Below are positions 1 to 26,658 of a stretch of DNA of 48,983 bases, in pieces (within the stretch, counting starts at the first letter, position 1; each line of letters starts with the position of its first letter). Location of the stretch: NCBI GenBank assembly GCA_008632985.1, contig QPGO01000240.1, positions 62,001-110,983 of the forward strand, read 5' to 3'. This stretch comes from Psammoneis japonica. Lineage: Eukaryota. The notes beneath the pieces were generated by a model. It had not been told where the DNA came from. It worked only from the letters and a program-made list of their open reading frames with translations, and searched no databases. The position numbers were made by a program, and so were the translations under genes.

Positions 1-51
1 CAGAACATTGATGCTCACTGCACACGCTCTTTGCCATTCTGTTTCTCCCAG

Positions 52-1306
52 TTCAATCGACAAGCCAACACTTGGAGGCAGCCGCATCCTCTGTCGACAC
101 CGACACTCGAATTGTAAATTGCCAAGGGGTGCAATGCCACGAGGAATGCGAGATTACAGACATTGAAGTCAAGTGTGATCGGCTTGTGGTGGCGGTCGGA
201 GCGAGTGCCAACACATTTGGCATCCCCGGTGTCGAGGAGCACTGCCTCTTCCTGAAGCAGATTGGTGATGCAAGGCACATTCGTCGCAAGATTGTCAGTT
301 TGTTTGAAAGAGCGAATTTTCCCAGACAGTCGGAACAAGAGCGTCGCAAACTGTTGACCTTTGCCGTGATTGGTGCTGGTCCAACTGGCGTTGAATTCAC
401 AGCGGAGCTTCGAGACTTTGTCAAACAAGATGGACCAAAGTGCTGTCCCCAGTCACTCAAAGACGTTCAAATCAAGGTCATTGAAGCAACACCAGTGATT
501 CTGAGGCCATTTGATGAGAGCTTGCGAGAAACAGCAATGAACGTGCTTACTCGCGGCATCAACATTGAGGACCCAGCTCGCAGAAGTTTATTCCCAGATG
601 AATTGACTGAGCTGGTCCTCAACAAGCCTGTCAAAGAAGTGACCACCGACACAATTGATCTTGCAGATGGCTCAGAAACACCTCATGGCTTGGCAGCATG
701 GGCCGGCAGTGTCGGACCTTTGCCCATTGCACCAGACATTGTTGAGGCGGTTGGTGGCGGACAAGTTGAAGCACAAGAAACGGCTCGCGGAAAGCTTGCG
801 GCAGATCCGTGGCTTCGAGCCGTGGATGGCAAAGGCAGCATCTTTGCATTGGGTGACTGCGCCTGCATGCAAATGGCTTGCTTGCCGAGCACCGCCCAAG
901 TCGCTGCTCAAGAAGGCGAGTTCCTTGCTCACGTTTTGTCCAAGGCCAACCTCAGTGCAGAGCACAGTGACGAGGGTGTCATGTTGCCGCCCAAACGTGA
1001 CCCGGAGAAACCCATGAGCTCAATGGATGTGATTGCTTCCTTTGGCGTCCAGACGGATGAGTGCATGGCTCCGTTCCAGTTCCTCGACATGGGCATTTTG
1101 GCATGTGCTGGTGGCTTTTCAGCGCTTGCGCAGGTTCAGGTGACACCAGACGAAAAGACATGCGTCAAGGCCCTGGAACCGTTGGATTTGGTCCATGGAG
1201 AAGCGCGCATTTGATGAAACAAGCATCCATGAGGAATCGCGCTCTTGTGGCCATTGACTGGGTCAAGTCACGTCTCTTTGGGCGTGACATTGCCGCCATC
1301 GACTAG
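52..1306 (+). pseudogene. Type II (alternative) NADH dehydrogenase NDH-2, last exon; frameshifted and TpA-hypermutated
   Basis: Motifs: DRLVVAVGASANTFGIPGV, VIGAGPTGVEF, IFALGDC, LPSTAQVAAQEG, and C-terminal WRSAHLMKQ..RNRALVAIDWVKSRLFGRDI. Intron acceptor (..ctcccag) at 49-51. Frameshifts near 70 and 1172. Expected Tyr residues read as Cys/His. The 5' part lies outside the window. Confidence 0.9.
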
Positions 1307-1499
1307 ATGCCGCAACTGCTGATTGCATCATGAAAGGAACAAGAAGAACGGCAGTTTTGTGTGACTTGCTTTTTTGGGGTGGTGCAGAAAGACAAGCGGC
1401 ACGGGATTGCCGTCGGCGATTTTCACCCATGTTTGCATGGAAATGTGTTTGGAATGAAGTGAAGCTTGCCACCAGGGAATAAGCAGCGGCTTTCAAGAG

Positions 1500-4400
1500 C
1501 AGTTTCATCAGTTGGACTTGTGCATGTTGTGCGCATGCGTGTCCGTGTCATGCAGAATGTAACCTTGTGCTGCACACACGAGAAAAGTTGGATGAAAAGA
1601 GAAAACGCAATGCAGCACACAGCGCTCGTGCACAGCAGGCCTTGAAAAGCTCCTGGATGGCCGATTGGGCCATGCTCCCGGGCGGCGCCAAATCGCTCAA
1701 ATCGCTTGAACAGCTCCAATCGTCACTTCAGCAGTGGGCTCCTGTTCGCCGCGATGTTCTCATGCAGCCGACCAGCTCCATCTGATTGCCAATGATGCAG
1801 AGCCATCTGATCAGGTCAAGCAACACATGTCCATTGAGACCACTCATTGCAAGTTCGCAAAGTCAACAGGACATGGAAATCCTTGGCGCAGCACTCCAGT
1901 CTCAGCAGCACAGCAGCATGCTTGTGCAACTCGCGGTGCATTTTCAAGATTGCAGCAAGAGCCTTGACTGTCCTTTGTGGTTCTTTTGAGCATGGAAGAA
2001 CAGAAGCAGGTTCAACAAGGTCAAAAAGATGGGGAGCCAAAGCCAGCTCAGCATGCGACAACAGAGCGTTGAGGACACTGGCAATCTTGTGAGTGTTAAA
2101 GTTTGGGGGTTGTGGTGGCAGCACGAGCAAGAAAATGCAATGAGTGAAGTTTGAATTTGTTTCCCTCCAATGACTCAAAAATGTTCTGATCAAAGCAGCA
2201 ACCTGCATTCATGCACCAGCAGCCACTCCTGATTTTTTGTTCCATTTCTGTGGCTGGCACATGTTTGAGCTGTCTTTTTCTCCTGCAAGTGGATGAGAGA
2301 AATGATGAAGAATGATGCACATGAGAAGATGGCAATGCTCAGCATTGCTGGCTGTTCTGGCTGGCAATGCAAGTCAACTTCTGGCAAGAGCTGACAACAG
2401 CAGTCTTGTGAAAGAGCCTGGATGGGCACAACAAGTGGTCAGTGTTGCAAGAAACTGCCATGACTGAGCATGAAAATTAGAGGCAACCCTCCAAACACAC
2501 TGCCACAGGTGGGCCACATGATGTGCAAAACACACAAAGAAAAGTTAAACCTCCAACCCACAAGCCTGAAAAAGGTGTGTGTCACCTGCATCCAAAGTCA
2601 ATCCAAGCCCTCTGCAAATTGTGACCACACACCTGCCCACTGGAGAAGAAAGCACAGGCAGGAACTCTGAGACAAATTCTTGACAGACAGCCATCATCTG
2701 ATGCCAAGAACACACTTTGCAAAAGTCCTGGCAGCTGGCAGTCTTCAAATGAACCAGCCAAGAGGAGACTCCACAGCTGAGCTCATGCTTGGTGAGAGGC
2801 AACACATGCATTCTTCCTCACACGCAAGTGCCAACCATCACAACAGAAGCCTCACATCAGCCAGGAAGCAGTTTGATGCAACTGACCACAGCTGTTGTTG
2901 TTCTTGGCACAGAGCGTCCTTCCCAGGGGTTGGCTGGTTGTCTCAGCTCCAGCACATGCAACCAGGTGCAGGGGCTTCTGAGCCCTGTTCCAGTGTGCAC
3001 GGTGCAACACTCAAGTGTGTTTGACAACGACAGTTTCAAAATGAACAGCAGTGGCAAAATCTCATGAAGCCCAATGCGGTGGCAGCTGCATGCATTTTGT
3101 CCTTCAGCTTTCTCTCATGTGTGTCCCCCACATGAGGGTCAGTTGTCACTCGCTGCTTCTCTGAGATGGGTGAGCTCAGCCCCTGCATCTGACATGCCTT
3201 TCCAGAGACACCCCACAGCACTTGTCTTGTCTTTCTGTGGCGGGTCTTTGTGCAGAGAAGCTCCCACACATTTGCTTCTCAGGCAAGCCTTGTGTTTGCT
3301 GCAGACTGAAAGGTCTGCTTGGCGGCATTGTGACCACGGCTGTGGGGCCAAACAAGTGAACGAAAACAGATGCCCATGAATGAGATGTGAGTCAGGGTTG
3401 TCTGTCCTTCTGCATGTGAGTCATGAGTCAACAGGCTCAAAAAATGTTGTGCTCAGCACATGTGATTCCCACAAGATGTGAGCAGCCATTTGAGCATCAT
3501 CTGCTCTCATTGAACCTTCCATTGAGAGTGCTGCACTTGGTGAGTGTCAGCCGCAGTCCATTGCAAACATTTGGTGTGGTCTCTGCGGCACAAGAAAACT
3601 CAAGTCTGGACAGCAAAAACAGGCCAGAGCAATTTTCTTCACACAAGACTGGGCATGTTCAAAGCTCAGAGCTCACAATTTGCAAAAAAGCTTCTTCTGT
3701 GTTGCTGCCAGCTCACTTTCTGGGCTCCACTGTGCAAGTGTGGCAGCAGGGCCACTTGCACCAACTGGCTGCGCTTCTTCCTGCACATGCCATTTGTTCA
3801 AGAGAGCCCCTGCACTGCCAGGGCAGTCAACCTCAGCTGGTTGTTTGGGCCCGATTTTGTTTCTGAGGGATGCTTTGCTCTTCAAAAATGGATGCCCAAG
3901 CCATCTGCACTCAAGAGTGCACTGCCCCTCCTTTCTGGCCCAGTGCTGAGGTGCACCCAAGTCTCCTGTTGCAAGATTTTGATGGAGCTCCCCTCTCTGA
4001 GATGGTCCACTTGACATGCCAGAACACATCTCTGATTTCCTGCTCCACATCAAGTTCCCAGATGTTTGGCCCAACACTCCAATCCTTGGCACCCATGTGT
4101 TTTTCATCCCTCCACAGGCAAGGACAAATCATGAGATTTTCTGCTTGTTGCTGTGTGTTTCATGTGAACTTGGCACCAAATCCATGTGGGAAAATTGAGC
4201 TCCAACATCAAGACACATTTTTTCATCTGTTGATCCACAAATTGGTGCACAGACCAAAAATGGCATGCCACGCCACCACCATGAACACTCGTCCATTTTT
4301 TTTCCACCAATGGATTCCATGATGATGACTGAGAAGGTGAGAATGTTGGGTCAGGTCAATGAGACTGCACTCCATGTGACGATGTGGTTGAAGTTTTGAT

Positions 4401-5886
4401 TCCTTCTGTTTGCTGTGTCTTGTGGACAGCCTTTTGACTCATGGTTTTTTCATGCCTCTTTTTCTCTTTCTCAGATTGCAAATCAGCATTCTTGGCAACA
4501 CTCAGCTCTGTGCACTTGCCTGGTGCTGTGTGCAAACAACAATGAGCATCTTTGTGACACATTGGCATGATTTTCACAATGCATTGTCTGCGCTTTAAGT
4601 TGTTGTGGATGTCACTTTTGGGTCACATGATGAACAGGCACAACATGCACTGCAAAGCAAAGCAATTGTGTTGGTGACATCCAAATTTTGCAGCCATTTT
4701 GCTTTGCTGAAAGGTGGAGCTGGCCACTTGAGCATTGAAATGTTGTCAAGATTTCATTGTTGCCACTGCCACCGCTGCTGCTGCTGCTGCACTTCAAACT
4801 TCTGATGACTGAATTGCTCCACAATCATCAAACATCTTGGGCTCTGCTGTTTCAATGCCTGCATGTGACTGACTTGCAACTTGTGCACAGGTTGACAAAC
4901 CAGCCAATCTTTGAAATGGCCAATTGTGCAAAATTGGACATTCAAAGTCAGCTCTCCCAATCTTTCCAATGAAAAAAAAGGAGCTGGAGGAGCTCCACTC
5001 TTCCTCTGTGTGAGCTCTTCATGCAACAAAGATTGCACACATTTTTTCAAAAAAGTCAGATGCTGCAATGAAAGAAACAGTGGCACAGCCTCTCAAACAC
5101 ACCTGAAAAACAATGATTTGCAGTCAGACAACAAGAATGATGGCCAGGGCATTTCAAAATGAGCAGACCTGAGGAAAGATGCAACAAAAATTTGGGGAAA
5201 ACCCATCAGATTTGCTTGCACAAAAGGCACAGTGATGAAAGAAGGGGGTGGGTGCACAATGTCCAACCTCAGCACACACATGCAACATCCGCCATGGAGC
5301 TGGAAAGTGCCAACAACAACTGCAGAGATGGCCCCGGCCAAAAGATGGGTGGTGGCAATTGCAGCTCAACTGTGAGCACACCCCCACCCCCAAAAAAAAC
5401 CTGTGCAGCAGCTTGGGCACAAAAATGCTGAAGACTCGCCTGACCCACTTAATCCTGCTGGGAGCTTGCAAAAAGAAGGGGTGGATGGAAAAGCTTTGCA
5501 ACATTGTGCCCGCAAAAAAGTGCAGCAAGGGCCACAAAAGACCAGGAGCTTGTGTTCATTCTCCAATGGCCAAGCTGCCAAATGTCCAGCTGTGCTGCAG
5601 ATGATGTGATGATGCAATGTTTCATCAAAAGCCGCAAAAATTTTGCCAGCAGATTTGCACATGGCGACATGGCGCATCGCCTGCCAGACTGTGCTTTTGT
5701 GCACTGGAAGAAACATGAGCTGTCCCTTGCTGCTCAAGTTTTGCAGCATGTTCCAGGTCTGAGTGTGTGAGAGAAAGATGTGATTTTTTGTTGACAACAC
5801 CTTTTGGGCTTGTTCCAAGCATGCCAGTCAGGAGCTGGGGGCAAACAAAATGCTGAAATCAACCTTGCTTGGAAAAGTTTGCAAAA
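1500..5886. other. Highly degenerate block depleted of both TpA and CpG (original content not identifiable)
   Basis: By eye only a handful of TA remain (e.g. ~2096, 2478, 2546, 4596, 5450), CG is rare beyond ~2000, and TG/CA are in strong excess. ORFs are Cys/His/Gln-rich with no recognisable domain. Confidence 0.8.
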
Positions 5887-5906
5887 GGCCTGTTCCAGCT
5901 CCAGGT

Positions 5907-6182
5907 TGACAGAAATTGAAGGCAAATGGCAAGAATTCAAACAACAACTCCTTGCTGCTGTCTAAATGGCAGATGAGTCTCCGCTCAGAGACCGTCACAG
6001 GAGCCGAAAGACGTGTGAGTCGGTGTGATCGGGCCACTGTTGTCATTCTTGTGAGCCTTGTGGCTCGAAAGCAAACTACATCGCGCGTGAACGCGCGGAA
6101 CTAAAGCACACAAAACTGTGTGCGGTAAACTAAACAGCGCGCGATGCTTTGCGCGCATCCAAATCCTGTTCAAATCCTGTCA
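5907..6182 (-). repeat. 3' LTR of element 1
   Basis: Direct repeat of 12743-13018. Preceded on the minus strand by purine tract GGGGAG (6183-6188). Confidence 0.97.
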
Positions 6183-9100
6183 CTCCCCAGTTTGCTTGAG
6201 GAGCCACAGAAACAGATTCGACTTCGGATGGAATGAAGTTCCAGAACATGAGGGGGCGGAGAAGGTCCCAGATTTGGGAGTGACCCCAATGCTTGCTGAG
6301 AATGTCAGCAGGGTTGCGGGAGCCTTCGATGAAGTGGAACTCAAGGTGACCAGAGGCAATTGCCTCACGCACACGGTGGAACGACAGTGCGGTGTGTCGC
6401 TTGTGTAACTTGGAGTGCGGGATGGTGGCACTGTCTACAACCGACTTGTTGTCACCGAACATGTAACTGACATTACGGATCGGGACGCCAAGGCAGCGCA
6501 GGGTGATGCGCAGGTCGACAATCTGCTCAACACAATTCCTTGTGGCAACAAATTCAGATCCATGGGTTGCAGTCTCCATGGTGGCTTGTTTCTTGGAGAA
6601 CCAATCAGCCGGGAATTTGTTGAGGAAGTGGAGCATTCCCATGACAGAGCGTCTGGTGAGCATGCAATGGCACAAGTTTGCATCGATGCAGTGGGTGGCA
6701 GTGACGAACTTGCCAAGGGGCGGTGGAGCGTCCTTCGGGATCATCTCTTCTGCTTCACCATACACGGAATGCATCCATTCGTAGGCCGGAGCAGGGAGAT
6801 CCGAACAGTCGGGCTCTTCCGTGCGAACGCGGAGAGCACCATGTCGCATCTTGGAGAGGTGCCCACAGACGCGTTTGGCACGATCCAAGTGGCCTTGACG
6901 GGGCGCAGCTCGGAAGCTAGAGAGTGACATGACGGCCGTGGTGATGTCAATTCGACCAAGGGACACTGCCCATTGGAGTGAACCAACAAGAGACTGGAAC
7001 TTGTGAATGCCATCGGGTCCCAGCAGTTCGGAAGTGTCCAGTTCGGGGTGGTCACCCTTCTCTAGAGGTGACAGGGCGTTGGTGGTGGGTTTCTCCCCAA
7101 ACAGTCGGGCGCAGCTGTCGACCATGCGCTCGATGTACTTGCGCGGAGACAGGCACAAGGTTCCGTCGGGGTCCCGGGAAAAGTCGCAACCCAGATGGAA
7201 CTCAATGGGTCCCGCACCCTTGAGCTTGAACTTGCACTTTTCCGTGAGAGTGTCGACGAAAGATTGAGGGTCCTTCATGGCAATGGCGAGGTCATCCACA
7301 TAAACGGCAATGTGTTCACAGTGGTCGCCGTTCCTGCGCATCCAAATGTCGGGTTCGGCGCGGCAGGGGAAGAAGCCTTCAGCTCGCAGGCAGTCGGCGA
7401 AGCGCTCGTGCCAGCGGAGACCGGAGCTGCGGAGTCCATACAGTGCCTTGTGGATGACAAGGATGTGTCCTTCGAGTTTGCCAAATTCGGGTCCAGCTGC
7501 AATGTAAAGCTTCTCCTTGGTGGTGGCTTCAAGGCAGGCATTGCCAATGTCGGTGGCCCATGTCTCCAGCTCGTTGAGTTCGGCCAGGAAAATCATCAGC
7601 CGAAGGCCACGAAGGGAGACTGCTCCGGAGCAGACACTGTCGACAGGTGCGTCCGTGAGGTGCCCGTCGGCTACGAGTCGTGCCTTGTGGCGACCGTCGT
7701 GTTTCACGTCGTACACCAGGTGGGGCTCGGATCTTCTTGTGTCCCGCAGGAGGAGTGGAAGACTTGAAGGGCCCGCAGTCATGGAAGACTTCGTATTCGT
7801 CGAGTTGGTCCATCTCGAGATTAGTTGCGTCTCCCCACTTGCGGTTGCCGTTGCGTTCGTCTAGTGACATGGCGTGTTTGCAGTTCCGGGGAACTTCGTG
7901 TCCGCACTTGTGGCAAGGTGCAGTGTTGGAAGGAGCGAAGCTTGGCTTGGTTGGCCATGCGAAATGGCTTCTTTTGGCGCCTCGCGATGGTGCGGAACCG
8001 CTTCCATCCATCCGTGTCGAGGAGTCCGTTCTCTCGTGCATAGATGGCACAGGTGACGGGGTCGTCCTTGGCGATGATGGCAAGAGGCTCGGACGTGATC
8101 TCCCCACTTTCCCATTCAAGCATGATGTTGTAGCTTGAGCCTTTCCAGGTTGGGTCGTGAGGCTTCAGAGGGCCTTCGTGTGACACGATGCGTCGAAATT
8201 TCCAAACAGTGGTGTCTTCGTCTTCTTGCTCAATGTGATTCATGATGTCATTGCAGGCAAGGACTTCCTCGTGTTCGTCATTGTTGACAGAGCAGACGAA
8301 CTTAGTGAGCTCGGGATTGCCGTTCACTTTCCATTCGTGGTCTTCGACGGCCTTGACGATGCGAGCTCTGTGGCGTTGTCCGTCCTCTTGTGGCTGCATG
8401 AGGAAGGTACGTCCAATGATGTCTTGCGGATCGAAAACTGGCATCTTGGGTGTCCTGATCTCCCCATCAGGAGAATCGACGGGGTTGTCGTCATGGCGAG
8501 ATTTGATGATGGGTTCAGGTGGCTCCCCATCAGGAGGATCAAGACGCAGGTTTCGAACGGCAGGATCGGGGGTGGCGGAGCGAACGTTGGACCGGTGGAG
8601 GATCTTCTGAGTCTCGTCAGATAGAATCTTGAAGGTCATCTGGTGGCCGATGTGCTCAGCAATGCCAACGAAGCGTCCACGCAACTCACGAGATTCGGAC
8701 GGCCAATCGGAGTCATCGAGGTGGAAGCACACTGGTTCCCACCAGTGAAAGCGAAGCAATGGGCTGATGTCCGGGGTGGATCCAGTGAGAGTCTCGAGGG
8801 GCGTGCGCCAGTGGAGACGTGGGGACGCTGCATGGTTGAGCACGAAGCACACGCACATGAGCGCCAGCAGCCATGTGTGGGCGGGCGAACCAAAACGGTC
8901 CATGACAGTGTTCGCCATGCGCTTCACAGTCTGGTGTCGACGCTCGGCAAAGTTTTGGTGTTGCTGGTGAGGCTCACTTTGCCAGCTGGAGATGAAGAGG
9001 GCGCGTAGGATCCCGAGCACTTTGTTGCTGATCTCAACTTGAGCACGGTCGCTGATGAGTTTGGATGGGGCACCACGTTCACGGATCTGATCCTCGAGTG

Positions 9101-11801
9101 TGTTGACAAACTCTTTGTCCGTCTCAGTGCCGCAGACGTCAGTGACNNNNNNNNNNNNNNNNNNNNNNNNNNNNNNNNNNNNNNNNNNNNNNNNNNNNNN
9201 NNNNNNNNNNNNNNNNNNNNNNNNNNNNNNNNNNNNNNNNNNNNNNNNNNNNNNNNNNNNNNNNNNNNNNNNNNNNNNNNNNNNNNNNNNNNNNNNNNNN
9301 NNNNNNNNNNNNNNNNNNNNNNNNNNNNNNNNNNNNNNNNNNNNNNNNNNNNNNNNNNNNNNNNNNNNNNNNNNNNNNNNNNNNNNNNNNNNNNNNNNNN
9401 NNNNNNNNNNNNNNNNNNNNNNNNNNNNNNNNNNNNNNNNNNNNNNNNNNNNNNNNNNNNNNNNNNNNNNNNNNNNNNNNNNNNNNNNNNNNNNNNNNNN
9501 NNNNNNNNNNNNNNNNNNNNNNNNNNNNNNNNNNNNNNNNNNNNNNNNNNNNNNNNNNNNNNNNNNNNNNNNNNNNNNNNNNNNNNNNNNNNNNNNNNNN
9601 NNNNNNNNNNNNNNNNNNNNNNNNNNNNNNNNNNNNNNNNNNNNNACCACTGGTCATCGTCAGTGACAGAGTGATCGAGGACGGAAGGGTCCCATGTGTC
9701 ATCACCGGCAAGGATGACATGGGGCAGGGTGTCCCATTCGGCGTCAGTGTGGGGGTCGCATGGCAACACAAGGCAGGCCAGCCTTGATGTCAATGGGGGT
9801 GACACAGCCATCAGGAGCGGCAATGCGTTGCAAGCCATTGGGCACCTTGACAGAGCGATCGTTGACATCCTGTTTGCACCATTCGAGCTGGCCGCAGGAA
9901 TGGATGGTCTTGCCCTTTCCCGTGCATGCGCACTGATGGAGGATGGCGATGACGGGACCACGCTGGGTCTCAATGATGGCACCAGCGGTGACAATGGGGA
10001 TGTCCACCAATTGATGATCGTCGGATGCCCTGAACGTCGACTTGGCGAGAGGTGCATGCAATGACGCGAACGTCGTCGCCAGCAATGCCGCCGTTGGCCC
10101 CACGATCGACTAGAGCGCCAGTGCGTGTGGAGCGATGAGCAGAGGCAGAGCAAATGACATTGTGGTTGTTGACGCGGCGGCAAGTGCGGCCGTTAAGTTC
10201 CATGTCATCTGCAGAAGCTGGCGGGGTAGAGGAAGCGGCGGATGGCCCCGGTCGACTGGCATTGGGGGCTTGGTTAGGAGACAACAGACGTTGCAGATCA
10301 CCGGGTGGCAGTGGCTTGCGCTTGGTGAGGTGCGCCAGGATGGGATCATCCGAAGTGGCGTCCACATGTGCAGCGGGGTCACCACAGTCAGCAGGAGTCG
10401 TGTTGGACAAGTTGACATCACCGTCACTCCCAAGGTGTTGGTCGTGAAGGTTGGCCGTAACAGACTCATGGCAGTTGCTGGCTCGCGGGTTGCGGGGAGG
10501 CGGACGAGAGTGCTCAAGGATGATCGCCTTGGAGGAATCGGGCAACGAATCCCAGAGCCGTTGGTGGTCGGGAGGGAGACGTCTCCATTGGACACCGGCG
10601 AGGCTGGGACCACGGGTGCAGGCAGCATTGGCTTGAAGGACGTCAACGTCGCTGTCAATGTCGCAGAACACATCGTCGGACGGTTCCTCGGAGCAGACGT
10701 CGTGTGCGTGCATGGCGCGTCGGGGAGCTCGAGGTGTCGTCTTGGGTTGAAACGTGCTGTCGCACTGAGCTGCCGCGGAGAGGAGCAAGCCACAGTGTTG
10801 ATCGCATGTGAGGCTCTTGCCACTCTGCGCACGATGCTGATCAGCTTGGTTCTTGACAGCACGGAGTTCCTCGACAGGGTGCACGGCATTCTCGAGCATG
10901 ACGCGCTTCTGTCCTTCAGAGAAGTGGTCGCTGGCGGGGATGAGTGCCTCGCACTTGCGCAACTGATCTTGCCAATGAAGGATGAACCCGTGGGTCGGAC
11001 CTTTCCAAGTGCCATCACCAAGACGTGCGGTGGTGAGGTGCGTGAGCAGGGTGGAGGACTCGACAGATGCACGGGTGGAGGCAAGCGCGCATGCAGACAA
11101 GGAGCGGTGGACGGTCTGTGCGTCAGAGGACCCCACATTTTCGCGAATGAGAGCCTTGCCCTTGTCGGTGAGAAGGATGCGTTCGAAGACGGCGAACATG
11201 TGCTTTTGCTGTTCAGCAAAGAGCAGTTTGTCTTCGGGGCTGGTCGGTTTGTACGACGAGTCTAGAATGCACTCGACGTCTTGGGCACGGGCTTGTGCCA
11301 CAAGTGAGGTGTGCCAAGTGTGCCACTGCTTGTCGGATTTGAGAGCCGTGAAAGCGGTGGGATCACGCTTGATGCCTCGCTTGAAGTCTCGCACCGGGTC
11401 GCGTGCCTTGGTCGGGTTGGTGACATGTGGAGGTGCAAGGGGTGAGCTGCCGATGGACAGAGAGGACATGCAGTCCGGGCTGAGGCGGCAGGCAAGGAAC
11501 TCGTCATGCGCGAACAAAGAGGAGTCGTTGGCAACGTCAAGACCTTTGTGTGCTTTGACAATGCACAGGCCACCAGTGCTGCTAACATGTTCTCATGACC
11601 ACGGGGCAAAGGGATCACATTGGCGCCGTTGTCGCACTCAAGCGAGTCGATTTGGGACGGCATGAACGTGAACAGTTCCTGACACGAGTCCGTGCCGTCT
11701 TGGGCCAAAGCCAAACGAAGAGGACTCCCAGCACCTTGGGCAAGCACGGTTCCAACAACGTGCTCGAAACCATCGGTTTGTTGCTGACGAGTGAGAACCA
11801 T
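6130..11801 (-). pseudogene. gag-pol of element 1 (several frameshifts, assembly gap, Tyr->Cys/His decay)
   Basis: Gag starts MVLTRQ at 11801 and contains DFKRGIKRD. Protease ALVDRGANGG near 10100. Integrase LISDRAQ and SEPHQQHQNFAERR. RT HKARLVADG, LYGLRSSG, AVYVDD. RNase H MFGDNKS and NPADILSK. Frame changes near 11540, 10025, 7925 and 7725. Confidence 0.93.
9147..9645. other. Assembly gap (N run) within the integrase region
   Basis: Run of N. Confidence 1.
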
Positions 11802-12731
11802 GGCAGACAAAAGTGGTGTCAGGACAATCAATTCTGGTTGGGGAAGCGAAGGCAGACTCGAAACTTGGGCGAGAATGGACTTGACTTGAAACAGACTTGA
11901 CTTGAAATCTTGAACCATCTTAAAATCAGAAGTCGCCGGGCTTTGTCATCCCGTTCGTTGTTGAGTGCTAAACTTCCCATCCGGTCCGCAGAGTTGTGCC
12001 GGCGCGTCCGAACCCGCAGCTGGCGGCGCTTTGGGTTGCTTGCGAGCAGAGCAGCGGGTTGTAAACCCCTGCAGGCAAGCTGACCAGAGGTGGACAAGAC
12101 CCCCGAACCGTTCTCATTTTATGTCGGTTGGATTTCCCGATCAGGCTGGCCAGTTGACGCAGGCGCCAGGTGCTGTGGACGAACGAACAAACGCGGGAAA
12201 GCACCCTCGCCCCAACGCAGGCTGCAATCACGGCTGCTTGCTCTCACAGTCGTCCTCGTGGACCTGGGCAGAACTGCAGAGCACCAGTAGTCCGGGGTAG
12301 ATCAGGTACAATGGACTCGGTGTGCTTGTAGAGTGGCAGCAAAACCGCAGTCCGAAGAGTGGGTGCAGGTTCTTGGCCGTGAAGATGTGCACATATATAT
12401 ATGTCTTCAGCGACGAAGATCCTTGAATATGTAGGGTTCTTGACCGTTAACCGATGAATAGGTATATCAAGGGATGAGGATCAAGGATAGACTTGGATAT
12501 GACCGTTGAATGTATGTCTTCAGCGATCAAAGGTAGTATAATCAATCCAGATATCCAGCGGTAAGGAGACTTGACGGTGACGTTAACTTCCTGCCGATGC
12601 CCTGGTATTGAATGCGCGTAGACTTGCCGATGTATGTAGAATATATACGGAGGTCCACGTAGAATTGAAATAGCGTCGTTGGTAAATCAACGACGACGAT
12701 GGCGGTTGCTCAATGGGTTGACAATGAGCAA

Positions 12732-12742
12732 GACTGTTAATC
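12732..12742 (-). other. Primer-binding site of element 1, complementary to a tRNA-Asn(GTT) anticodon arm
   Basis: Minus strand reads LTR-CA|GATTAACAGTC, the complement of GACTGTTAATC, a tRNA-Asn anticodon stem-loop sequence. Confidence 0.65.
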
Positions 12743-13018
12743 TGACAGAAATTGAAGGCAAATGGCAAGAATTCAAACAATAACTCCTTACTGCTGTCTA
12801 AATAGCAGATGAGTCTCCGCTCAGAGACCGTTACAGGAGCCGAAAGACGTGTGAGTCGGTATAATCGGGCTACTGTCATTGTTCTTGTGAGCCTTGTGGC
12901 TCGAAAGCAAACTACATCGCGCGTGAACGCGCGGAACTAAAGCACACAAAACTGTGCGCGGTAAACTAAACAGCGCGCGATGCTTCGCGCGCATCCAAAT
13001 CCTGTTCAAATCCTGTCA
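12743..13018 (-). repeat. 5' LTR of element 1
   Basis: Direct repeat of 5907-6182 that retains more TpA. Followed on the plus strand by TSD CAGGT. Confidence 0.97.
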
Positions 13019-14204
13019 CAGGTGCTCCGCGCGGGTTCGATTCCCATCATTTGGAAATTTGTGCATTTGGCGCAATTGACTTTTTCCAAATCCGTTTTTT
13101 GCCAAATCGAAGGGCAAGCGCACACTTTGCATGCATTTTTGGGTGTACACTCACCTTTTGATTTTTGAAACGATCAAAATTGAAGGAGTTAATTGCGCTG
13201 AACTGCGCAGAAAATCGGCCTCTCGCGTGATGAAAAGCAGAGCACCTGGAGCTGGAACAGGCCAAAAGGCAGGGAAATGATGCTGGCTGGAAGAAGTGAA
13301 GTGTTGACACAACAGGGCACATCAGACCATTCTTGTTGTGGGGCAGCAGAGAGTGGCAGCTTGGACATCATGTGGTTCATTGGAGAGGCATTTGGGCAGC
13401 TCCAATGCAGCTCGCAACAGCAGGAGGAAGCCAAAAGCGCGCCAAAAGAACTGCTGCAATGTCAGCTCTGACTCAGAGTTCATTTTCCATGCACAGACAG
13501 TTGCTGCCACACATCCAGAGATGGAAAACCACTTACATTGTTCGAACGAGTTTGTTCCCCATTCTGCAACAGCTCTCTTGCAGCCGCGTGTTGGATGTAA
13601 ATGGGTGAAACAAACACCGTTGTCAAAAACTCTCCACTCTCCTCGCAGGTGAGCAGGGTGCACATTGCCCTCAGACATGCTTACAAAAAATGGCGGGAAA
13701 GGGAGGCAAACTTTCTACGACGAGTTCGTATTTCACAAAAACGTATGTAGAATGTCGTACAATCTGTACTGAGATTGCTCGTCTATCTTGCTGCTTCAAG
13801 GTTTCTCGGTTTATTCTCGCTCCAACGTCAGGGAAACCCGGAAATAAAAGTCACGAGCAGAAGGTATTTCAAAGTACCCGGAGCCGATGTCTAAATGACA
13901 TTCTCGGGATGCGTCACTCCCTTTTAGGGCACGACCGATTCAGCGACCCCTTATTTATGTGTCATGTCAAGGTGTATTACGTGGCGTGAAACCGATGAAC
14001 GTGGCGCACCCTCGTAGAAAGGATACTGGAAATCTGGTAGAAATCAATCGTAGTTTTGTCAGCTGTTCCCCGTCGAAGCATCGGTCGTTTGTTGAAACCT
14101 TATCAAATGATCACTCGTTTCTCGGTCGCATTCCATAGAGGTTGAGAGCTTTCCACAAATCGTTCTTTTACCCATCATCATTACTATCGGCGTTGCTTTT
14201 CACC

Positions 14205-14795
14205 ATGAACTGTGTTTTCGATATCTTGGGAGTGGCGATCCTGCCAACGAAGGCTCGTGCGGCTGTCATGTCTCAGACAAAGTGTCGGAGGGAGGCAGCT
14301 TTCTCACAAGCGAGCGCCACTGGTTTCTTCAACTATGCTGAGAAGAGCAAGAGCGATGATGATACTGCTTCGACTGTATCAACTTCCGAACAAGATGAAT
14401 TCTTTTCGAGCAGTGTTGTTACTTTCTCGGAAACATTGGTCACCCATGTCTACACGCGACCAAGGACCACCAAGGAGGAGAAAAGAGTTTTGTTTTACAC
14501 GGACGACGAGTACATGGAGTTCAGACTCGACGCACACTGCAGCCGACGAAGAAACAGGGTCGTGAAGTTTGCCGATTCCATTGTGACTGATGTGTACGAT
14601 ATTCCGTCTAGCAGAGGCAAAGCCAACCTCTACTACAGTGAAGCTGAACTACAAGAGTAAGTATCAATGTTTGAAAGTGCCACCTTTTGACTTCCAGAAT
14701 GAAAATGCGGCGCTAACACCTTGCTATTTTCTTCCTCGACGAACAGATTTCTCGATGAATTCGTAGCTTCTTTGGATGTGAGTTCGGAATACTGA
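14205..14795 (+). CDS. Hypothetical protein with two internal VxF..VT.V...P....L(F/Y)Y(T/S)..E repeats; exons 14205-14656 and 14747-14795
   Basis: ATG at 14205. GTAAGT donor at 14657, CTAAC branch site, AACAG acceptor at 14746. The spliced frame continues ELQEFLDEFVASL to TGA. Confidence 0.75.
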
Positions 14796-15240
14796 GTCAG
14801 AATGGTCATGCTCTCGAGAGTTCAGACTTGCTCACTGCTTCGCGTAGCAGATTGAGTTGAAGGCGGTACAATTACTGAGATTACTGAGTGCGGGCTCAGT
14901 TCAGACGAATTGTTCGAGTTTCGAAAACAACGCGTACACGTTCTCATATACTAGAGAACGCATCACGAGAGGTACAACGAAGCAACGGTTGCTTTGCTGT
15001 ATCTCCGTGATTGCGTCTCCCTTCAAGACGCCCCTGAGGTTCTTCTCTTGGTGCTAACACAGGAACTAACAGCAGCAGGCACAATTGCGCAATACTACAC
15101 ATATAAGGCTCTGTATGCAGAAAAAGAGGATTCTAAACCCAGTCCAAAATACAGCTATGGCATATCCTCTTGTCTGTCGAACGAAAATAGAAATGCAACT
15201 AACAATACTAGAGTCCTTTGCTCGATCATCATCTCCTGTA

Positions 15241-17051
15241 TCAACGCGGTCGTAGCAACCGAGAGTGCTTTTCTTTGCGCCTTCTACTTTCAAGATAGTC
15301 AGGTCTAAGTGACAGGTGGGTGAGACTCTCCCGCCCGTCCGCTGAAAGGAGCTTGTTGTGTTTGGGTGACAACGGAAGGTGCTTCAAATAGGCTTGGAGC
15401 ACATTGGGGTCCTCAAGGAACAGCAAAGCCGATCTATCGTCGCCAAAAGGACCGGGCTTCGTTGTCGTCTTCTTGTTGAGCTTCTTGAGAAGGACGTCGA
15501 TACTGTACAAACATGCTTCTCCATCAAATGTTGTAGTGACTAAGCTACTATCCTTGATAAGTTGGCTGCCCAAGTACACTTCCTTTGAGCTCATGAGAAA
15601 GGTAAAAACTCGTTCTTCAAAGATTGGTCCTTGAAATTGCTGGCTCCAAGGCCGCAATGGCTCCATACCAACCTCTTGGTAGTTGAGAATGGCAAAACTC
15701 CTTTGTCCAATCTGATAATGCGTTTCTCCGGTCTCAGGATCTGGATAGAATCTCGAAATGTGTTCATCAAGGTTGTCCCGCTCCGTCTTGCTGGTGGCCT
15801 TGGTAAGGACGCATTCAACAAATGCGTCAATCGTTGAGTTCAGGTAGAGGTCTGGCCTCCTTGCTGCAGTCCCTGCATTGATGATCTTAGGGTTGAATAG
15901 ATGCGTACCGAGCTTAACACCCGCAAGAATCTTATACAGCTCGAATGTCAAGACATCTTCGACAGGCCCTCCGAACGGAATGTATTGACCCCAACTCATC
16001 AGCGGCAATCCGTGCATCAAAAGCTGTTGGACACCGTCGAGACCACCATTCAATAGCATAAAGGGAGACGACTGTTCTGGTGTTACCTGAGAGATGAAAG
16101 ACTCAAAGAGGAGCTGCGAAATAATCTTGTCTTCACTGTCGCAGAGTCCCTTTTACGGAGATCATCGAGAAGCATCGAATCCTTAATCTTGTACAGGAGA
16201 GGGCTGATATCAGTGTGACGAGTCGTGGGAAGGATGCGAGTTTGCATATCCTTGAATTCCTCGCTGGAACGAAACTCCTCCGAACCCAAAAGATAGGCAA
16301 ATAGGTCGTCCGCGTTCTTGTTTTCTTCGTTCTTGATTTTTGGGGCGAGGCGCTCGGAAATCTACATGAATGGAAAAATGTGCCCACCACAATACGAGCG
16401 AACGCTTTCTACCAGCTTTCGAATCTCAGCTGCTTGATCAGCAGTCGCCGCTCCCTGCGAAAAGTAAGCGACGACCCCCTCATCTTCAAGCATTTGCTCG
16501 TCGCTCAAAAACAACTCGTCGGTACTAATCTTTCTCTTAAAATTCCCAGACGCAGTTTCAAATTCAGGGACACCAGCTCCAATTGTCGTGATTTTGTGGC
16601 CTTGATCGTTTTTCAGCAGCGGCGTAAATACCGCGGCGCCCACATTCGTCTGAGTTTCGTCAATCAGGAAGTAAACTTCTTCCTTGGTCGAAGACAATTT
16701 CTTCACCAATATATACACTCTTTAATTCAAAAGCGCCGCGGTTTCGAAAAACCAAACTTTCTTTCCCGCTTTCGTGAGATCTTTTTCTGCGAGGAGGTGA
16801 AGCAAGGTCGTCTTACCTGCGCCTTTGCATCCGTTGATGTGATACGGGGTTTCCGGGTTGGCTTTTTTGAGGATCTTACTACGAAGTTGTTGACGCTGCA
16901 CGACTAAAGGCCCAAATCCAACCTCCTTGAACGTTTCGCGTGTTACCATGCTACTCCATCGGCATTCAGCGGGGATTTCCATGCTCTCCATCGATGCTCT
17001 TCGCTTCCCGGCAAGTACAGTAGGCGTGCAGCGCCGTGCTGAGAGACCCAC
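15241..17051 (-). pseudogene. Disrupted P-loop NTPase + PD-(D/E)xK nuclease gene (Crinkler-type NTPase-REase architecture)
   Basis: Walker A GCKGAGKTT, Walker B YFLIDE, YCGGHIFP, and C-terminal RRPDLYLN...FVECVL. In-frame stops at 16722-16724 (TAA) and 16362-16364 (TAG), and a frameshift near 16150. Ends are approximate. Confidence 0.7.
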
Positions 17052-18008
17052 ACCTGTTCTAACTCAAAAAAGAGTCGCTTCCTTACTTCGAGAGGTTTGA
17101 CTCTTCGAGCGCTGAGAACTGTACAGTCCAGCTGAGGACACTTCTTCTCTACAGCGTAAAAGGAAAAGCCCAGTTGGCAACAATAACAAGATGACGGAGT
17201 GATAGGAGTGATGTCTAATGTTGGTCTTCACTCTAGAGTACAGGTAGGTGTGCTTCACGATAATCTCAAATCAATGACGTACAAAGACAGACAGTGGGGT
17301 AAGGAGTGCGAGCGTAGTAGTTAAGTCGTCTGAATCAATTATTTTTTTCTACAGTACGATCATGACGGATTTCATTTACATATAATGTATATCTTTTATA
17401 ATTTATATTCACATTCATTAATGTTGAAGAATGAACCCAGTTGTGTGTCTCTCCAAATTTTTGTCTACCGCCTTCGCCGTAGTTTCGATACTCATCAGAT
17501 TTCAACGGCACTCTAAGTATGAGATTCTACAGCTAATATATTTATACAGAATTTAATACTGTAGCCAAGTGTGACACTCACTACAACATGAGTGTCTCGC
17601 GGGACAGCAAACGAAAATTCTCGGTGTCGTTTGGTCTGTTGCCAACAGTGCGACACAACATAAAGCTGTTGCTGTATTGGTATGTTGCGTGAGAATCAAG
17701 AACGTTCAAACCGCTCAGCAATAGTTTGTCACCAGTCTTTGATTCTATCACCGCGATACTGTATTGACATTTGTAGCCAACAAGTTTGACGAGTCATCAA
17801 ATCACTCAAACGACCTGAAATTTTCGTGGTATTTTCTCTCCCGTATTGATTCTACGTAGATTCTACAGCGACACTCGGAGTCGGACAAAAACGGTAGTCG
17901 TGTTTTCCCGTTTAGTTGCATCCAACAGATAACACAGTCAGCGTCGTACCTGATCAATCCAATCTCTAGAACAATCGGCGTGTGAACGAGGAGTGCACTA
18001 TTAAAACC

Positions 18009-18763
18009 ATGTCACCTGCACCAACTTGTCAGAATCCCGTTCACGACGAAATACCATTGGTAGACATGGCCTCGGCAGAAATCGCAGGAATGCGCCTCAA
18101 CGACGAGCAAGGCATTGCATATGAACACACTTTTCCTCCAGCGTGCTTGGCGCTTTTGAGAGACCTTCCAGGGAACCATAGATGTATCGATTGTGGCGGT
18201 CAGGATCCTCAATGGGCGACGGTTAGCTATGGAGCTCTTTTATGTCTCTCATGCTCCGGACGACACCGGAGTCTCGGAGTTCAGGTGGGTTCTTGGAAGG
18301 CTTTGACAACGTTGCCTTAGACGATACTGTTCTGATGAGGGGTCTATTTTGTCTCGAATCAAAGCTAGAGTCGATATGAGAGTCATTCACTCTGTTTTTT
18401 CTTTTTTGATCCTTCACATGTCAGGTTTCTTGTGTAAGATCAATAACTATGGACAATTGGTCCCCAGCAGAGGTACTGGCAATGTTGGAAGGCGGAAACA
18501 CTCAACTGCATAATTTTTTTGAACGACACGCGTTATGCGAAGAAACAAAAGTAGACGAAGACGCTCGAAAGAATGCCAAGCGCAAATTGATACAAGGCGA
18601 CGTAGTCAGTCTGAGGTACAAAACCAAAGCGGCTGAGTTTTATCGAAAACAAATGGGGTTACACGTGTCAAAAGTCATGAGAAAAGGAAAATACAAGGGA
18701 AGATCAGAGTCTAGGAGGGTTCGGTATCGGGCCCTTGCAGAACGAAATTCAACAGTGTTGTAG
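18009..18763 (+). CDS. ArfGAP-domain protein (paralog 1); exons 18009-18284 and 18425-18763
   Basis: Zinc finger CIDC..PQWATVSYGALLCLSCSGRHRSLGVQ, spliced to VSCVRSITMDNW..MLEGGN..RYKTKAAEFYR. Confidence 0.92.
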
Positions 18764-19184
18764 CGAAGTGCGACTATTCTAGAAAAGGTTAAACAGATTC
18801 ACTGATTCCTGAAGCGGTTCACTTGTTTGTGATGCAGTTATCAGACTTGGACAGCCTTTCTTCACTCTTTCTCCAATGTCGCTTTTCTTCCAGTTCGGTG
18901 TTTCTTTGTGGATAACCTCTACAATGCCGACAGGGATAAACTCGAGTTTAGATGAATTGATGAGAGGGATGAGGTGAGAGGTGACCAGAAGGAAGCGTAA
19001 CAGCACCGCGCTCAATGCCGCTGTTCCTTTTGCTCTGTGAAGGTTCTGTACAAACTGTGCTGTGTTGGATGAACGATCGTGAACTGTGACTTCCACTGAG
19101 GATCTTGTTGAGGATGACATCGATCACCTGGAGCGAATGCTTGACATGCTTCCTCAGCTGCCCCAAAGCACACAGATCCCGGGG

Positions 19185-19379
19185 ACTTGTTATACCGATG
19201 TATAACTGTAGATATCGAAAGAGCTGATGCTCAAGGTTGTAAACTAGTAGCTGTTGTTGTTGCAAAAGTCGTTGACTGAAAATTATGACTGCAATATCGA
19301 GCAGAGTTTTGATGGCGGAATTTGAAAATTGAAGCGCGCGATTACGCGCAGTCGACAGGTAGATTGACAGACGTCAACT
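19185..19379 (-). repeat. 3' LTR of element 2 (TpA-retaining copy)
   Basis: ACTTGTTATACC...GACGTCAACT, a direct repeat of 26459-26653. Confidence 0.95.
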
Positions 19380-19398
19380 CTCCCTCTCAACCGTAGAG

Positions 19399-22300: not shown

Positions 22301-24262
22301 GTCTCATGTGCCTGTTTCGCTCGAACAGTCTCGACAGCGGAGAAACCGACTTGGTGTTCAATGTGGATGTAACTAGAGGCGTGGTCGACAAAGACACAGC
22401 TGCCAACATGCTGCTGGGAGGACGGTTTGCCGCATGAATCATGGGTGCGGCCCTTGAGACGTCATTCGAAATGGTCGACGCTGATGGACTGGCCCGGATT
22501 GAGATGGTCAGCCTTCAACGCTCCATCGCGCTCAGGGTCGGATTTGTGAATGGCAGACTTCAAAGAACGGCGATGAGCCTTGGCATGTTTGCATGTGTCG
22601 CATTTTGGAATGTCGCATTTGGATGCTGCCTTGAATTTCATGGCCTCGAACGGATGGCCGCGGAGCAGAGCTTGGATCTTGGGAAAATGTAAGTGCCCAA
22701 AGCGCGCATGCCATTCATTGAGAAGCTTCTGTCCAGCAGACAGATTGAGGTCATCCGGGTCGCCAATGGCGCTCAAATTGACTTGTGGTGCATGGACAGA
22801 ACCGAGAGTCGCACAGCCAACCGGCAAGTGGGAGCGCTCATTGCACTCGAGCGTCAACTCCGGCGTGTCTGCGAAACAAACCTTGAAAATCTCACTGTCA
22901 CCCCAAAAATGTCCTTTGATGCTGTCTGCATGGAAGAGACGTTGTGGAGAAAGCAGGCGAACCTTGGAGGACGGGACGAGACAGGCGCGGAGCTGGGTGG
23001 CAATTTCGTGACCCTCCCTGGCTTGAAAGGTCCACGTGACGGTGCCCTCACCAGTGATGCACATGCCGTCAGCCATGCCACCAAGGCGGAGTGGGGTCCG
23101 GCAGCACTTGATCAGACCATCAAAATCTTTCTCGTCAGGAGTGATGGCCTGCGAGGCACCAGTGTCAAAAACAACCTGGAGATCACTTGGTCCGACATGA
23201 AAGACCGACATGAAAGAGGGCCTGGGGATCAGCGGCGAAACGCGTAAGTTGGGTCTCCCCGGAAATGGCACGAAGTGCAGCGGAGGTTGGCAAAGCGGGG
23301 GAAGCCAATGGATCCTCTGCAGCGAGCTCCGGAGCATTGGTGCAGTCGACAAAGTAGCGGGCGTGACACAAGTCAGCAATGCCGAAGACATCCGGGCTCG
23401 AGCAGTCAGACTCGCGGAAGGTGTCAGCATCGAAGAAGCATTCCGCATGGATGGGGAGCTCCGTGTGCGCATCAAAGAAATCGTCGTTGTCACTCTTGTC
23501 AACCAACTTGGAAAGTTTGAAAGGTAGAGTGGCGGTGTCTTGCTTGTCTCCCTCTGAGCGCGCCAACTCACATTTGAATTGTCTGACCTTGACAGCATGG
23601 CACTGGACGAACGCACCGGGCGATGGATCGACGCGCTCATCAAGAGCGGAGACAACTTCGTATGTTTGAGAAGAGAGGCGGTCCAATGATTGAAAGGGGT
23701 GGGGAGGGACAGCGCCGCCGCACACAAAATGCCAAAGCGCAATCGCGCACGCAATCACGCCCCAACGACAGGGGCAGCGACACAGCGCAGGGCGGTGCTT
23801 GAGGCGACGTTCACGGCGGGGAGGAGGGGGGGGATCATCCTGGGAGCAGACGAGCCACAGGAGACCTTCCCAAAGCATTGCAGAGATCCAAAAGAGCGGG
23901 AGCTTGAGGAGATCCCACAGCAACAGATGGTGAGCTTGGGGAACCGGTGGATCCGGCGCGGGGTCGGGTCCGGACTCGGCATCGAAGAAGAACTCAGCCG
24001 CAGGAGCCGGAGCACCCGAAGTGGGGACACTGGATGAAGGAGGAGTCGTGGGCGGAAACACAACAATGGAATCGTCCCAAGACAGGTCGTCACATGCATC
24101 GAAGCAATCGCTGAAGTCGTCAGCATCTTCAGGTTCGACGGTCTCGACTGCAGCTGGTGGGCGCTCCCTCTGAGACGCAGAAGCGGGTTTGCAGGAGACT
24201 CGTGCGACAGACGGGTGGGAGGAGACGAGCCCTCGACCACACAACAATGGAATCCAGTCCAA
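19399..24262 (-). pseudogene. pol of element 2 (PR-IN-RT-RNase H)
   Basis: Protease VVFDTGAS. Integrase WHARFGH..CDTC, VDHFE, NAHHQNGVAER. RT FKARFCVRGD, LCGLKQAP, AVCVDD. RNase H CEDNQAC and QLADQFTK. A 13-bp tandem duplication at 23192-23217 causes a frameshift, and in-frame TGA stops occur at 22462 and 21589. Confidence 0.95.
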
Positions 24263-26440: not shown

Positions 26441-26458
26441 GCGTTTGGGCTCACAACC
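26441..26458 (-). other. Primer-binding site of element 2, half-tRNA-iMet type, carrying a TA->CA mutation
   Basis: Minus strand GGTTGTGAGCCCA versus the copia/Ty5-type PBS GGTTATG(A/G)GCCC. The plus strand has CACAACC in place of CATAACC. Confidence 0.85.
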
Positions 26459-26653: not shown

Positions 26654-26658
26654 CGGGG

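Follow-up and report, generated by a model that had tools for sequence, protein, structure and literature searches.

A mutational process that turns TpA into TpG or CpA has been observed de novo in mutation-accumulation lines of Bigelowiella natans, a chlorarachniophyte alga of the Rhizaria (Mettrop et al. 2026, bioRxiv 10.64898/2026.01.13.699255). According to the available passages of that preprint, the mutation rate of two integrated viral regions is ~6e-7 per site per generation, and the changes are nearly only A→G or T→C and always in TpA. The Bigelowiella genome contains 124 clusters that are depleted of TpA and enriched in CpA and TpG, and these clusters are enriched for reverse-transcriptase and DDE domains. 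They were delimited by a length of at least 3 kb, a TpA observed/expected ratio (O/E) of at most 0.43 and a CpA+TpG O/E of at least 1.52, and the authors propose an ADAT2-like adenosine deaminase as the responsible enzyme. Here, we describe a signature of this kind in the diatom Psammoneis japonica (Stramenopila). The stretch analysed, hereafter the window, comprises 48,983 nucleotides of contig QPGO01000240.1 (assembly GCA_008632985.1, positions 62,001 to 110,983, forward strand) and contains two minus-strand Ty1/copia retrotransposons, element 1 (5907-13018) and element 2 (19185-26654), most of whose length is nearly devoid of TA. We propose, with a probability of roughly 0.8, that a TpA-converting process acts after integration across the silenced repeat islands of this diatom genome.

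[quoted passage not shown] However, RIP converts CpA to TpA, lowers the GC content and creates stop codons, whereas in the window TpA is replaced by CpA or TpG, the GC content rises and TAA and TAG are removed. RIP is indicated by a TpA/ApT index above 0.89 and a (CpA+TpG)/(ApC+GpT) index below 1.03; the repeats in the window give 0.0-0.3 and 1.2-2.3, respectively, with reversed polarity. Repetition as a trigger is a feature of RIP for which the window provides no evidence. ADAR and APOBEC enzymes also hypermutate mobile elements by deamination, and ADAR favours a 5' U, but their edits are strand-specific and precede integration. In the window, both strands are changed after integration, and DNA that is not a retroelement is changed as well.

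The diatom locus shares with the Bigelowiella regions, as far as the available preprint passages describe them, a nearly exclusive A→G and T→C spectrum, confinement to TpA, TpG and CpA outcomes on the two strands, a local extent and a rate far above background. The two cases differ in their hosts and also in their targets, which are LTR (long terminal repeat) retrotransposons, older repeats and a host pseudogene here and giant-virus and virophage inserts in Bigelowiella. The TpA O/E reaches 0.0-0.2 here, near saturation, compared with 0.45 in the nucleocytoplasmic large DNA virus region of Bigelowiella. Moreover, the diatom evidence is historical, consisting of LTR pairs and tyrosine loss, whereas the Bigelowiella mutations were watched arising. 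Sparing beside expressed genes and a coexisting CpG decay are found here and are not met in those preprint passages. The carriers of the signature in the window are akin to the Ty1/copia elements of diatoms (CoDi-type; Maumus et al. 2009, PMC2806351). Neither PMC2806351 nor 10.1101/2025.10.24.684338, in the portions available, mentions TpA, dinucleotides or hypermutation, and the available part of a Phaeodactylum mutation-accumulation paper (PMC6604790) names CG, CC and TG as mutagenic contexts and does not use the term TpA. A literature search, whose coverage left out most subscription journals, found no report of a TpA-loss signature in a diatom. The signature is thus so far known from one 2026 preprint on a rhizarian alga, and the diatom represents a second lineage.

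Element 1 offers an internal record of what happened after its insertion. A repeat search and pairwise alignment found one direct-repeat pair, 5907-6183 and 12743-13019, with 95% identity. As read from the sequence, the LTRs proper are 276 nucleotides each (5907-6182 and 12743-13018) and have TG...CA ends. Because the same 5-bp target-site duplication, CAGGT, stands on both flanks, both LTRs derive from a single insertion and were identical on landing. The TG...CA ends and the 5-bp duplication are those of a copia element, and the RVT_2 match of the minus-strand frame at 6133-7860 identifies element 1 as Ty1/copia and the 12743 copy as its 5' LTR. The two LTRs now differ at 13 of 276 aligned positions, every one by a transition. 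At seven sites (12781, 12790, 12804, 12832, 12861, 12863 and 12871), the 12743 LTR has TA and the 5907 LTR has CA or TG; at two others (12957 and 12986), the 12743 LTR has CG and the 5907 LTR has TG. The remaining differences form two adjacent dinucleotides (12877/78 and 12880/81) that are TG followed by CA in one LTR, with the opposite order, CA followed by TG, in its partner. All three classes had been listed in a sequence-only reading of the window that preceded this analysis, and the full LTR alignment confirms them, the seven TA sites being those quoted there. Single transitions that destroy a TA in the TA-rich LTR account for 24 of 274 possible ones and those that create a TA in the other LTR for 48 of 274, so that TA-changing transitions make up ~13% of the possible changes; 7 of 13 were observed (P=5.6e-4). 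Outside TA and CpG dinucleotides, 4 of 210 positions differ, and these are the swap positions only. Because the LTRs disagree within one target-site duplication, the process acts after integration.

The swapped dinucleotides are formally ambiguous, as they fit either an ancestral TA or an ancestral CG that was hit independently on opposite strands in each LTR. We favour an ancestral TA because the per-site loss in the same LTRs is 58-69% for TA and 0-10% for CpG. With either ancestry, the 12743 LTR, although almost untouched elsewhere, must have been hit twice. Family copies also show differences of this CA/TG form, at 10347/8, 10709/10, 10711/2, 10796/7, 11683/4 and 12021/2. These states, like all family states given below, are those among the variants listed (40 of 323, with 12853 as the one LTR site) after the contigs of four sequencing runs were aligned to the window. 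At 12853, both element 1 LTRs read TG, whereas 73% of the family depth has TA; the source copy probably already carried this conversion, a parallel double hit being the other possibility.

Element 2 repeats the pattern in an unrelated sequence. It carries RVT_2, gag_pre-integrs and SH3_retrovirus domains, the latter two upstream of the reverse transcriptase (RT), which is the copia gene order with an RVT_2-type RT downstream of the integrase; RVT_2 is present in both elements. The LTRs of elements 1 and 2 are unrelated and their RTs are distant, and the closest named relatives of both elements are diatom sequences, one RT match being labelled as diatom. All nine differences between the element 2 LTRs are TA versus CA or TG (P=6.8e-8), and none of the 12 CpG and none of the 146 other positions changed. 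The flanks of element 2 (19180-19184 and 26655-26659) share GGGG only, 4 bp, instead of a clean 5-bp duplication, and its LTR ends differ from the usual TG..CA.

Both LTR pairs together contain 22 differences, all transitions, of which 16 are TA versus CA or TG, two are CpG→TpG and four belong to the swap. The direction is one way within each pair, and across the two pairs it is 16:0 (P=3e-5). All 16 unambiguous A/T→G/C differences sit in TpA, and none of the 352 remaining positions differs (upper 95% bound ~0.85%). The excess of lost TA (16 of 25) over these positions is historical evidence and not a measured rate. The LTR data therefore present the spectrum, the confinement to TpA and the excess over background by which the Bigelowiella process is defined. 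Methyl-CpG decay is also recorded in the window, in the two CpG→TpG differences among the 22 and in older repeats with a CpG O/E of 0.08-0.24. However, it concerns another dinucleotide and is far slower here: 16 of 25 TA but only 2 of 33 CpG were lost in the same LTRs (Fisher P=4.8e-6).

Which way did the changes run? The codons TAY cannot avoid TA, and conserved tyrosine columns therefore serve as an outgroup test. The element 1 RT was compared with 120 homologs, in which 312 columns are at least 80% conserved. Eleven of its 15 conserved tyrosines are changed (6 Cys, 4 His, 1 Phe), compared with 32 of 297 other columns (P=9e-8), and its conserved Cys (0 of 2) and His (0 of 16) columns are unchanged. 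The catalytic YVDD is intact, and the cysteines of DSVCSG, GNACL and LRCLGVP (positions 77, 109 and 456) stand where 98-100% of the 120 homologs have Tyr. The element 2 RT was too distant from the homologs of element 1 to be judged against them (208 of 312 conserved columns differ) and was compared with its own 149 representatives; all six conserved tyrosines are changed (5 Cys, 1 His), compared with 14 of 138 other columns (P=3.5e-6).

A third coding region lies outside both elements. A plus-strand frame at the left end of the window matches structures of yeast Ndi1, an alternative NADH dehydrogenase (NDH-2), at E=4e-39 and has its best matches in pennate diatoms. The frame has 400 codons with no Tyr and no stop; the seven conserved tyrosines have all been replaced (by Cys in five cases, His in one and Phe in one), and in total 70 of the 241 conserved columns are altered. 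We regard the frame as a pseudogene, apparently a copy of a host gene that the same loss of TpA inactivated. Across the three coding regions, no conserved Cys or His column has turned into Tyr. Other changes fit the TpA rule too, namely GTA→GCA (Val→Ala), CTA→CCA (Leu→Pro), ATA→ATG (Ile→Met) and first-position A→G after a codon ending in T (Thr→Ala, Ile→Val). A smaller class of substitutions in the coding regions is CpG→CpA or TpG.

Relatives of element 1 point the same way. The family majority has TA where the window has CA or TG at 10664 (76%), 10830 (94%), 12387 (62%), 12390 (55%), 12392 (66%) and 12853. Related loci on public metagenome contigs (80 in all) have a median TpA O/E of 0.72, a value biased toward unconverted copies in that one of the two search patterns contained Tyr. 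As these relatives have normal TA, the TA-normal state is taken as native, and from the conserved columns and the relatives together, the direction of change is read as TA loss.

At least one further public assembly carries the signature. On an unrelated public contig, a copia fragment related to element 1 (L067) has three TA in 2766 bp (O/E 0.02), and its RT has lost 14 of 15 conserved tyrosines (6 His, 5 Cys, 3 Phe), with CVDD at the catalytic site; the same conserved Tyr codons are Cys in element 1 and His in this fragment. Two further loci, L061 and L068, are intermediate, with TpA O/E of 0.31 and 0.33. Among the matches listed, five protein homologs carry Cys or His at most or many Tyr-majority columns. 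Nearly all Tyr are lost in P0478 (2061 residues, 0 Tyr), P0495 and P0480, and the loss is less complete in P0110, which keeps 4 Tyr in 23 aligned Tyr-majority columns, and in P0052, which keeps 13 of 28. These Tyr-loss proteins come from ENA, Logan and NCBI sources. Such Tyr-poor public polyproteins are probably dead elements that read open since their TAA and TAG codons have been erased.

The element 1 family is very abundant in run X1, where it is represented by 8976 contigs; over 9700-13018, the summed word depth is ~5e4-1e5 in the body and 3.7e5 in the LTR, compared with 57 for single-copy DNA. A single-copy X1 contig (depth 57) differs from the window at no fewer than 11 sites in 13240-19158. 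Four of those 11 are TA in the window and CA or TG in the contig (15104, 17084, 17123 and 17245), three of them within 160 bp, and at 13443/4 the window has CA where the X1 contig from the same locus has TG. At five of these sites (15375, 16923, 16965, 17084 and 17123), run X2 has the letters of the window. The X1 contig may be a second haplotype with TpA hits of its own, in which case the process would have been active recently or be active still.

The loss extends over regions rather than over elements. Per-kb dinucleotide ratios and TA counts in 250-bp steps delimit two TA deserts. Positions 1-12250, 13019-13500 and 19501-28250 contain 107 TA in 20,983 bp (5.1/kb), compared with 1190 TA in 27,501 bp elsewhere (43.3/kb). 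The TpA O/E is 0.00-0.07 over 1-6000, 0.04-0.23 in the element bodies and 0.4-1.0 elsewhere. The CA/TG O/E is raised to 1.3-2.0 in the deserts (1.54-1.97 over 1-6000, mostly 1.26-1.68 in the element bodies). By the cluster cut-offs of the Bigelowiella preprint, 1-6000 passes both and the element bodies pass the one for TpA. The deserts include older repeats (~1750-5906, 13019-13500 and 26655-28250) that are without both TA and CpG, while CpG O/E in the element bodies stays at 0.73-0.99. Run X1 contigs join the left flank of element 1 directly to 13019, an empty-site form which indicates that other copies of the older repeat exist without element 1. TAA and TAG occur at 3-7.6/kb in the deserts and at 35-38/kb elsewhere.

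The desert edges do not match the element ends. TA density is normal in the 5' LTR of element 1 and in its leader; TAs remain scarce as far as 12329 and are dense again from 12394 onward. The normal stretch of element 2 comprises the 3' LTR and ~120 bp inward of it, beyond which TA declines in a graded manner, from ~1 per 15 bp to 1 per 53 bp and then to lower values. Both spared LTRs face the gene island at 13501-19184. Run X2 contigs skip 14656-14747 and 18280-18421 with GT..AG boundaries and look like spliced transcripts from this island, and one X2 contig ends at 19182, three bases from element 2. The broader claims of the sequence-only reading are also borne out by these data: that TpA is what the process removes, that the element 1 RT is only partly converted (YVDD intact; DIGNACL, DSVCSG and LRCLGVP altered), that conversion is incomplete in element 1 (the 12743 LTR and leader), that it outpaces CpG decay and that it is not specific to one family. 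Conversion is seen in elements with unrelated LTRs and distant RTs, in older repeats and in the NDH-2 frame.

Both strands are affected about equally. The LTR outcomes are 8 CA and 8 TG and alternate without long single-strand runs, Tyr→Cys and Tyr→His stand at 6:4 in the element 1 RT, and the TG share of CA+TG is 0.49-0.55 in all sequence classes. TATA was resolved to CATG twice in element 2 (19191-19204) and to TGTG once in element 1 (12860-12863). TA survival varies with the tetranucleotide, from ATAT (0 in the deserts, 90 in normal DNA) to TTAA, which has the highest value (0.33), the baseline being other DNA and not the true ancestor. TA survival in the deserts is lowest in ATA or TAT contexts, and these contexts hold 10 of 16 converted and one of nine retained LTR sites (P=0.03). 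An extended sequence preference beyond TpA is only a lead. A rule based on the neighbouring base (+1 or -2) was rejected as a predictor of the strand hit, because, of the 14 informative LTR sites, it assigns CA versus TG correctly at no more than 6 or 8.

Thus, we propose that, after integration, TpA would be changed to CpA or TpG by an A:T→G:C transition at either base of the step, site by site and on both strands of chromosomal DNA, over whole silenced repeat islands. The per-site rate would exceed background by at least two orders of magnitude and be well above CpG decay. Anything in an island would be affected, as are the two unrelated Ty1/copia elements, the older repeats and the trapped host gene copy, and over the last few hundred bases before an expressed gene island the process would fade out. 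The gene-proximal LTR would be spared, and an LTR pair would appear ~5% diverged, because of this fading. The consequences are destruction of Tyr codons, with inactivation of the RT, loss of TAA and TAG stops and a raised GC content. The data show the signature, its polarity in coding DNA, its timing after insertion, its strand symmetry, its relative rates, its regional extent and its occurrence in another public assembly, whereas the chemistry and the targeting are inferred. The reaction may be deamination of adenine to hypoxanthine in 5'-TpA-3' by an ADAT2/TadA-like deaminase, as proposed for Bigelowiella, and silent chromatin may be its target in a genome-defence role. In tRNA, the base that ADAT and TadA target, A34, is always preceded by U33, and such an enzyme would fit the TpA preference. 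Our preferred reading is an editor that is restricted to silent chromatin and fades near active genes. A larger version, which we hold tentatively and at somewhat less than even odds, is a chromatin-domain-targeted, TpA-erasing DNA-editing defence of diatoms that would be the same system as in Bigelowiella, old or widespread in algae of the SAR group (stramenopiles, alveolates and rhizarians), still running, able to kill trapped host genes and bounded by a graded protected zone beside expressed genes.

The process could operate with a different chemistry. If the thymine of TpA were enzymatically modified, for instance to 5-hydroxymethyluracil by a TET/JBP-type enzyme, mispairing with G would give T→C on either strand and identical CA and TG outcomes, and sequence cannot separate the two chemistries. 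In dinoflagellates, 5-hydroxymethyluracil is enriched at TpA and TpC, but this base pairs well with A, and no sign of such a base in diatoms emerged from this analysis. The sole paper on the signature argues, in its available passages, for adenine deamination (10.64898/2026.01.13.699255), and we regard thymine modification as unlikely. The spared LTR ends raise another alternative, in which the whole element was hypermutated and its TA-rich ends were later restored by ectopic gene conversion, with no protected boundary. In its favour, the family is highly repeated (8976 contigs, with a depth of tens of thousands against 57 for single-copy DNA), and the boundary in element 1 is rather abrupt, the converted sites at 12387-12392 lying next to the dense TA that begins at 12394. 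However, the spared LTR of each element is the one on the side of the same expressed island, the edge in element 2 is graded and the target-site duplications are intact, so that we consider restoration quite improbable.

The remaining alternatives fare worse. Misreading of a modified TpA base in repeat islands would be compatible with four runs from one sample and with a modern assembly that has a scaffold gap in the window, but a miscall should be strand-consistent, whereas the outcomes here are fixed and vary between copies and LTRs, with CA in one and TG in another. Some TAs survive, for example in YVDD, Tyr loss recurs in the L067 fragment and in proteins from ENA, Logan and NCBI sources, and the Bigelowiella mutations were called de novo in Illumina-type mutation-accumulation data, according to the available passages (10.64898/2026.01.13.699255); an artefact is very unlikely. 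The LTR comparison alone is symmetric, and a RIP-like C→T change at CpA could have made the TAs of the 12743 and 19185 LTRs in a natively TA-poor sequence. Such a reversal is hardly tenable given that the losses in three coding regions fall on conserved Tyr codons, that related loci have normal TA, that the TA-rich LTRs equal the genome background (0.5-0.8) and do not exceed it, and that the RIP indices of the deserts deviate in the wrong direction. If the RNA genome had been edited by ADAR, or the cDNA by a deaminase, before integration, the element would have arrived TA-poor. The preference of ADAR for U before the edited A (discussion of 10.64898/2026.01.13.699255, as available) and the editing of retroelement RNA and cDNA in animals (PMC4866542, in the part available) favour such an origin, but the strand-specific changes shared by both LTRs that it predicts are not what is found: the LTRs disagree within a single insertion, the two strands are hit to an equal degree, desert edges fall inside the elements and the NDH-2 frame, which is no retroelement, is converted too. 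This origin is scarcely credible for the signature as a whole, although it could be a small extra source of LTR-shared sites such as 12853. Biased gene conversion is not TpA-specific and was rejected; it, RIP, pre-integration editing and selection against TA are dismissed on polarity, LTR discordance and loss of the catalytic Tyr (CVDD in element 2 and L067).

Several observations weigh against a TpA-converting process as we describe it. The polarity at the seven LTR sites of element 1 is borrowed from the contiguous element body and the relatives. Relative to the family majority, A/T→G/C changes occur outside TpA at 10510, 11128, 11511 and 11624, and either the specificity is not absolute or these four are subfamily markers. 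The four runs share a single sample, which may also have been the source of the window itself, and so give no independent proof of its letters. Models of neighbouring bases built from the surviving TAs miss the strand hit (8 versus 6 of 14). Finally, the sparing of an LTR could be due to ectopic gene conversion from an unconverted copy.

The features of the window that bear on the TpA loss are collected in Table 1. Element 1 is broken in several of its frames, one break being an extra base at 10023 that is absent from 97% of the family depth. No Pfam match was obtained for its integrase core, which would lie in or near the N gap. Within its 7.1 kb, 32 frames of 100 codons or more are open. Long frames occur in all six reading frames of both converted elements (5907-13018 and 19185-26654); such frames are open because TAA and TAG were erased. 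A sensitive blastn search detected no further LTR or element copies within the window. Just outside element 2, the older TA- and CpG-poor repeat contains two 63-bp direct repeats that are 84% alike (26670-26842). The genes of the window have long exons, and the best named matches of a phosphoglucomutase-like frame are all from diatoms (54-65% identity). In the part of normal composition, a plus-strand frame of 1106 codons (38137-41454) has an N-terminal AAA_16 ATPase domain and is unrelated to the TA loss.

Table 1. Coordinates of elements, deserts and other features, in positions of the window
Feature	Positions	Strand	Remarks
TA desert 1	1..12250	.	NDH-2 frame, older CpG-poor repeat and most of element 1; TpA O/E 0.00-0.23 per kb
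Putative NDH-2 pseudogene, host-type alternative NADH dehydrogenase	12..1211	+	Pyr_redox_2; inside desert 1
Target-site duplication of element 1, left copy	5902..5906	.	CAGGT; identical to 13019-13023
3' LTR of element 1	5907..6182	-	TA-poor converted copy; 5 TA, 19 CpG; repeat search and alignment
RT/RNase H frame of element 1	6133..7860	-	RVT_2 (E=3e-25); YVDD kept; 10 of 15 conserved Tyr now Cys or His
Frame upstream of RT in the pol direction	7824..9146	-	In a frame other than that of RT; no Pfam domain found
Assembly gap inside element 1	9147..9645	.	499-base N run
Gag/protease-side frame of element 1	9973..11592	-	No Pfam match
Leader adjoining the 5' LTR of element 1	12251..12742	-	Normal TA density regained; sparse to 12329, dense from 12394
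5' LTR of element 1	12743..13018	-	TA-rich, mostly unconverted; 12 TA, 21 CpG; repeat search and alignment
Target-site duplication of element 1, right copy	13019..13023	.	CAGGT; read from sequence
Right remainder of the older TA- and CpG-poor repeat that hosts element 1	13019..13500	.	Continues desert 1 past the spared end
Gene island between the elements	13501..19184	.	Normal TA; spliced expressed genes including an ArfGAP-like gene
3' LTR of element 2	19185..19380	-	TA-rich; 13 TA
RT/RNase H frame of element 2	19402..21588	-	RVT_2; YVDD changed to CVDD; 6 of 6 conserved Tyr changed
TA desert 2	19501..28250	.	Most of element 2 and the older CpG-poor repeat to its right; left edge graded
5' LTR of element 2	26459..26654	-	Converted; 4 TA

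TpA hypermutation that is near saturation in the retrotransposon islands of a diatom extends the signature to a second lineage, one that is ecologically dominant and genetically tractable, and hints at a genome defence, a mirror of RIP, that is widespread in eukaryotes. Dating by LTR divergence breaks down in DNA on which the process acts, given that the LTR pairs look 4.6-4.7% diverged although none of the 352 ordinary sites differs. Gene prediction is misled as well: with TAA and TAG gone, dead elements show long frames, and the databases hold Tyr-free "polyproteins" of up to 2061 residues. The graded sparing by expressed genes provides a testable link between the editor and chromatin, and if that link is true, the protected zone would be a sequence-only readout of past chromatin boundaries.

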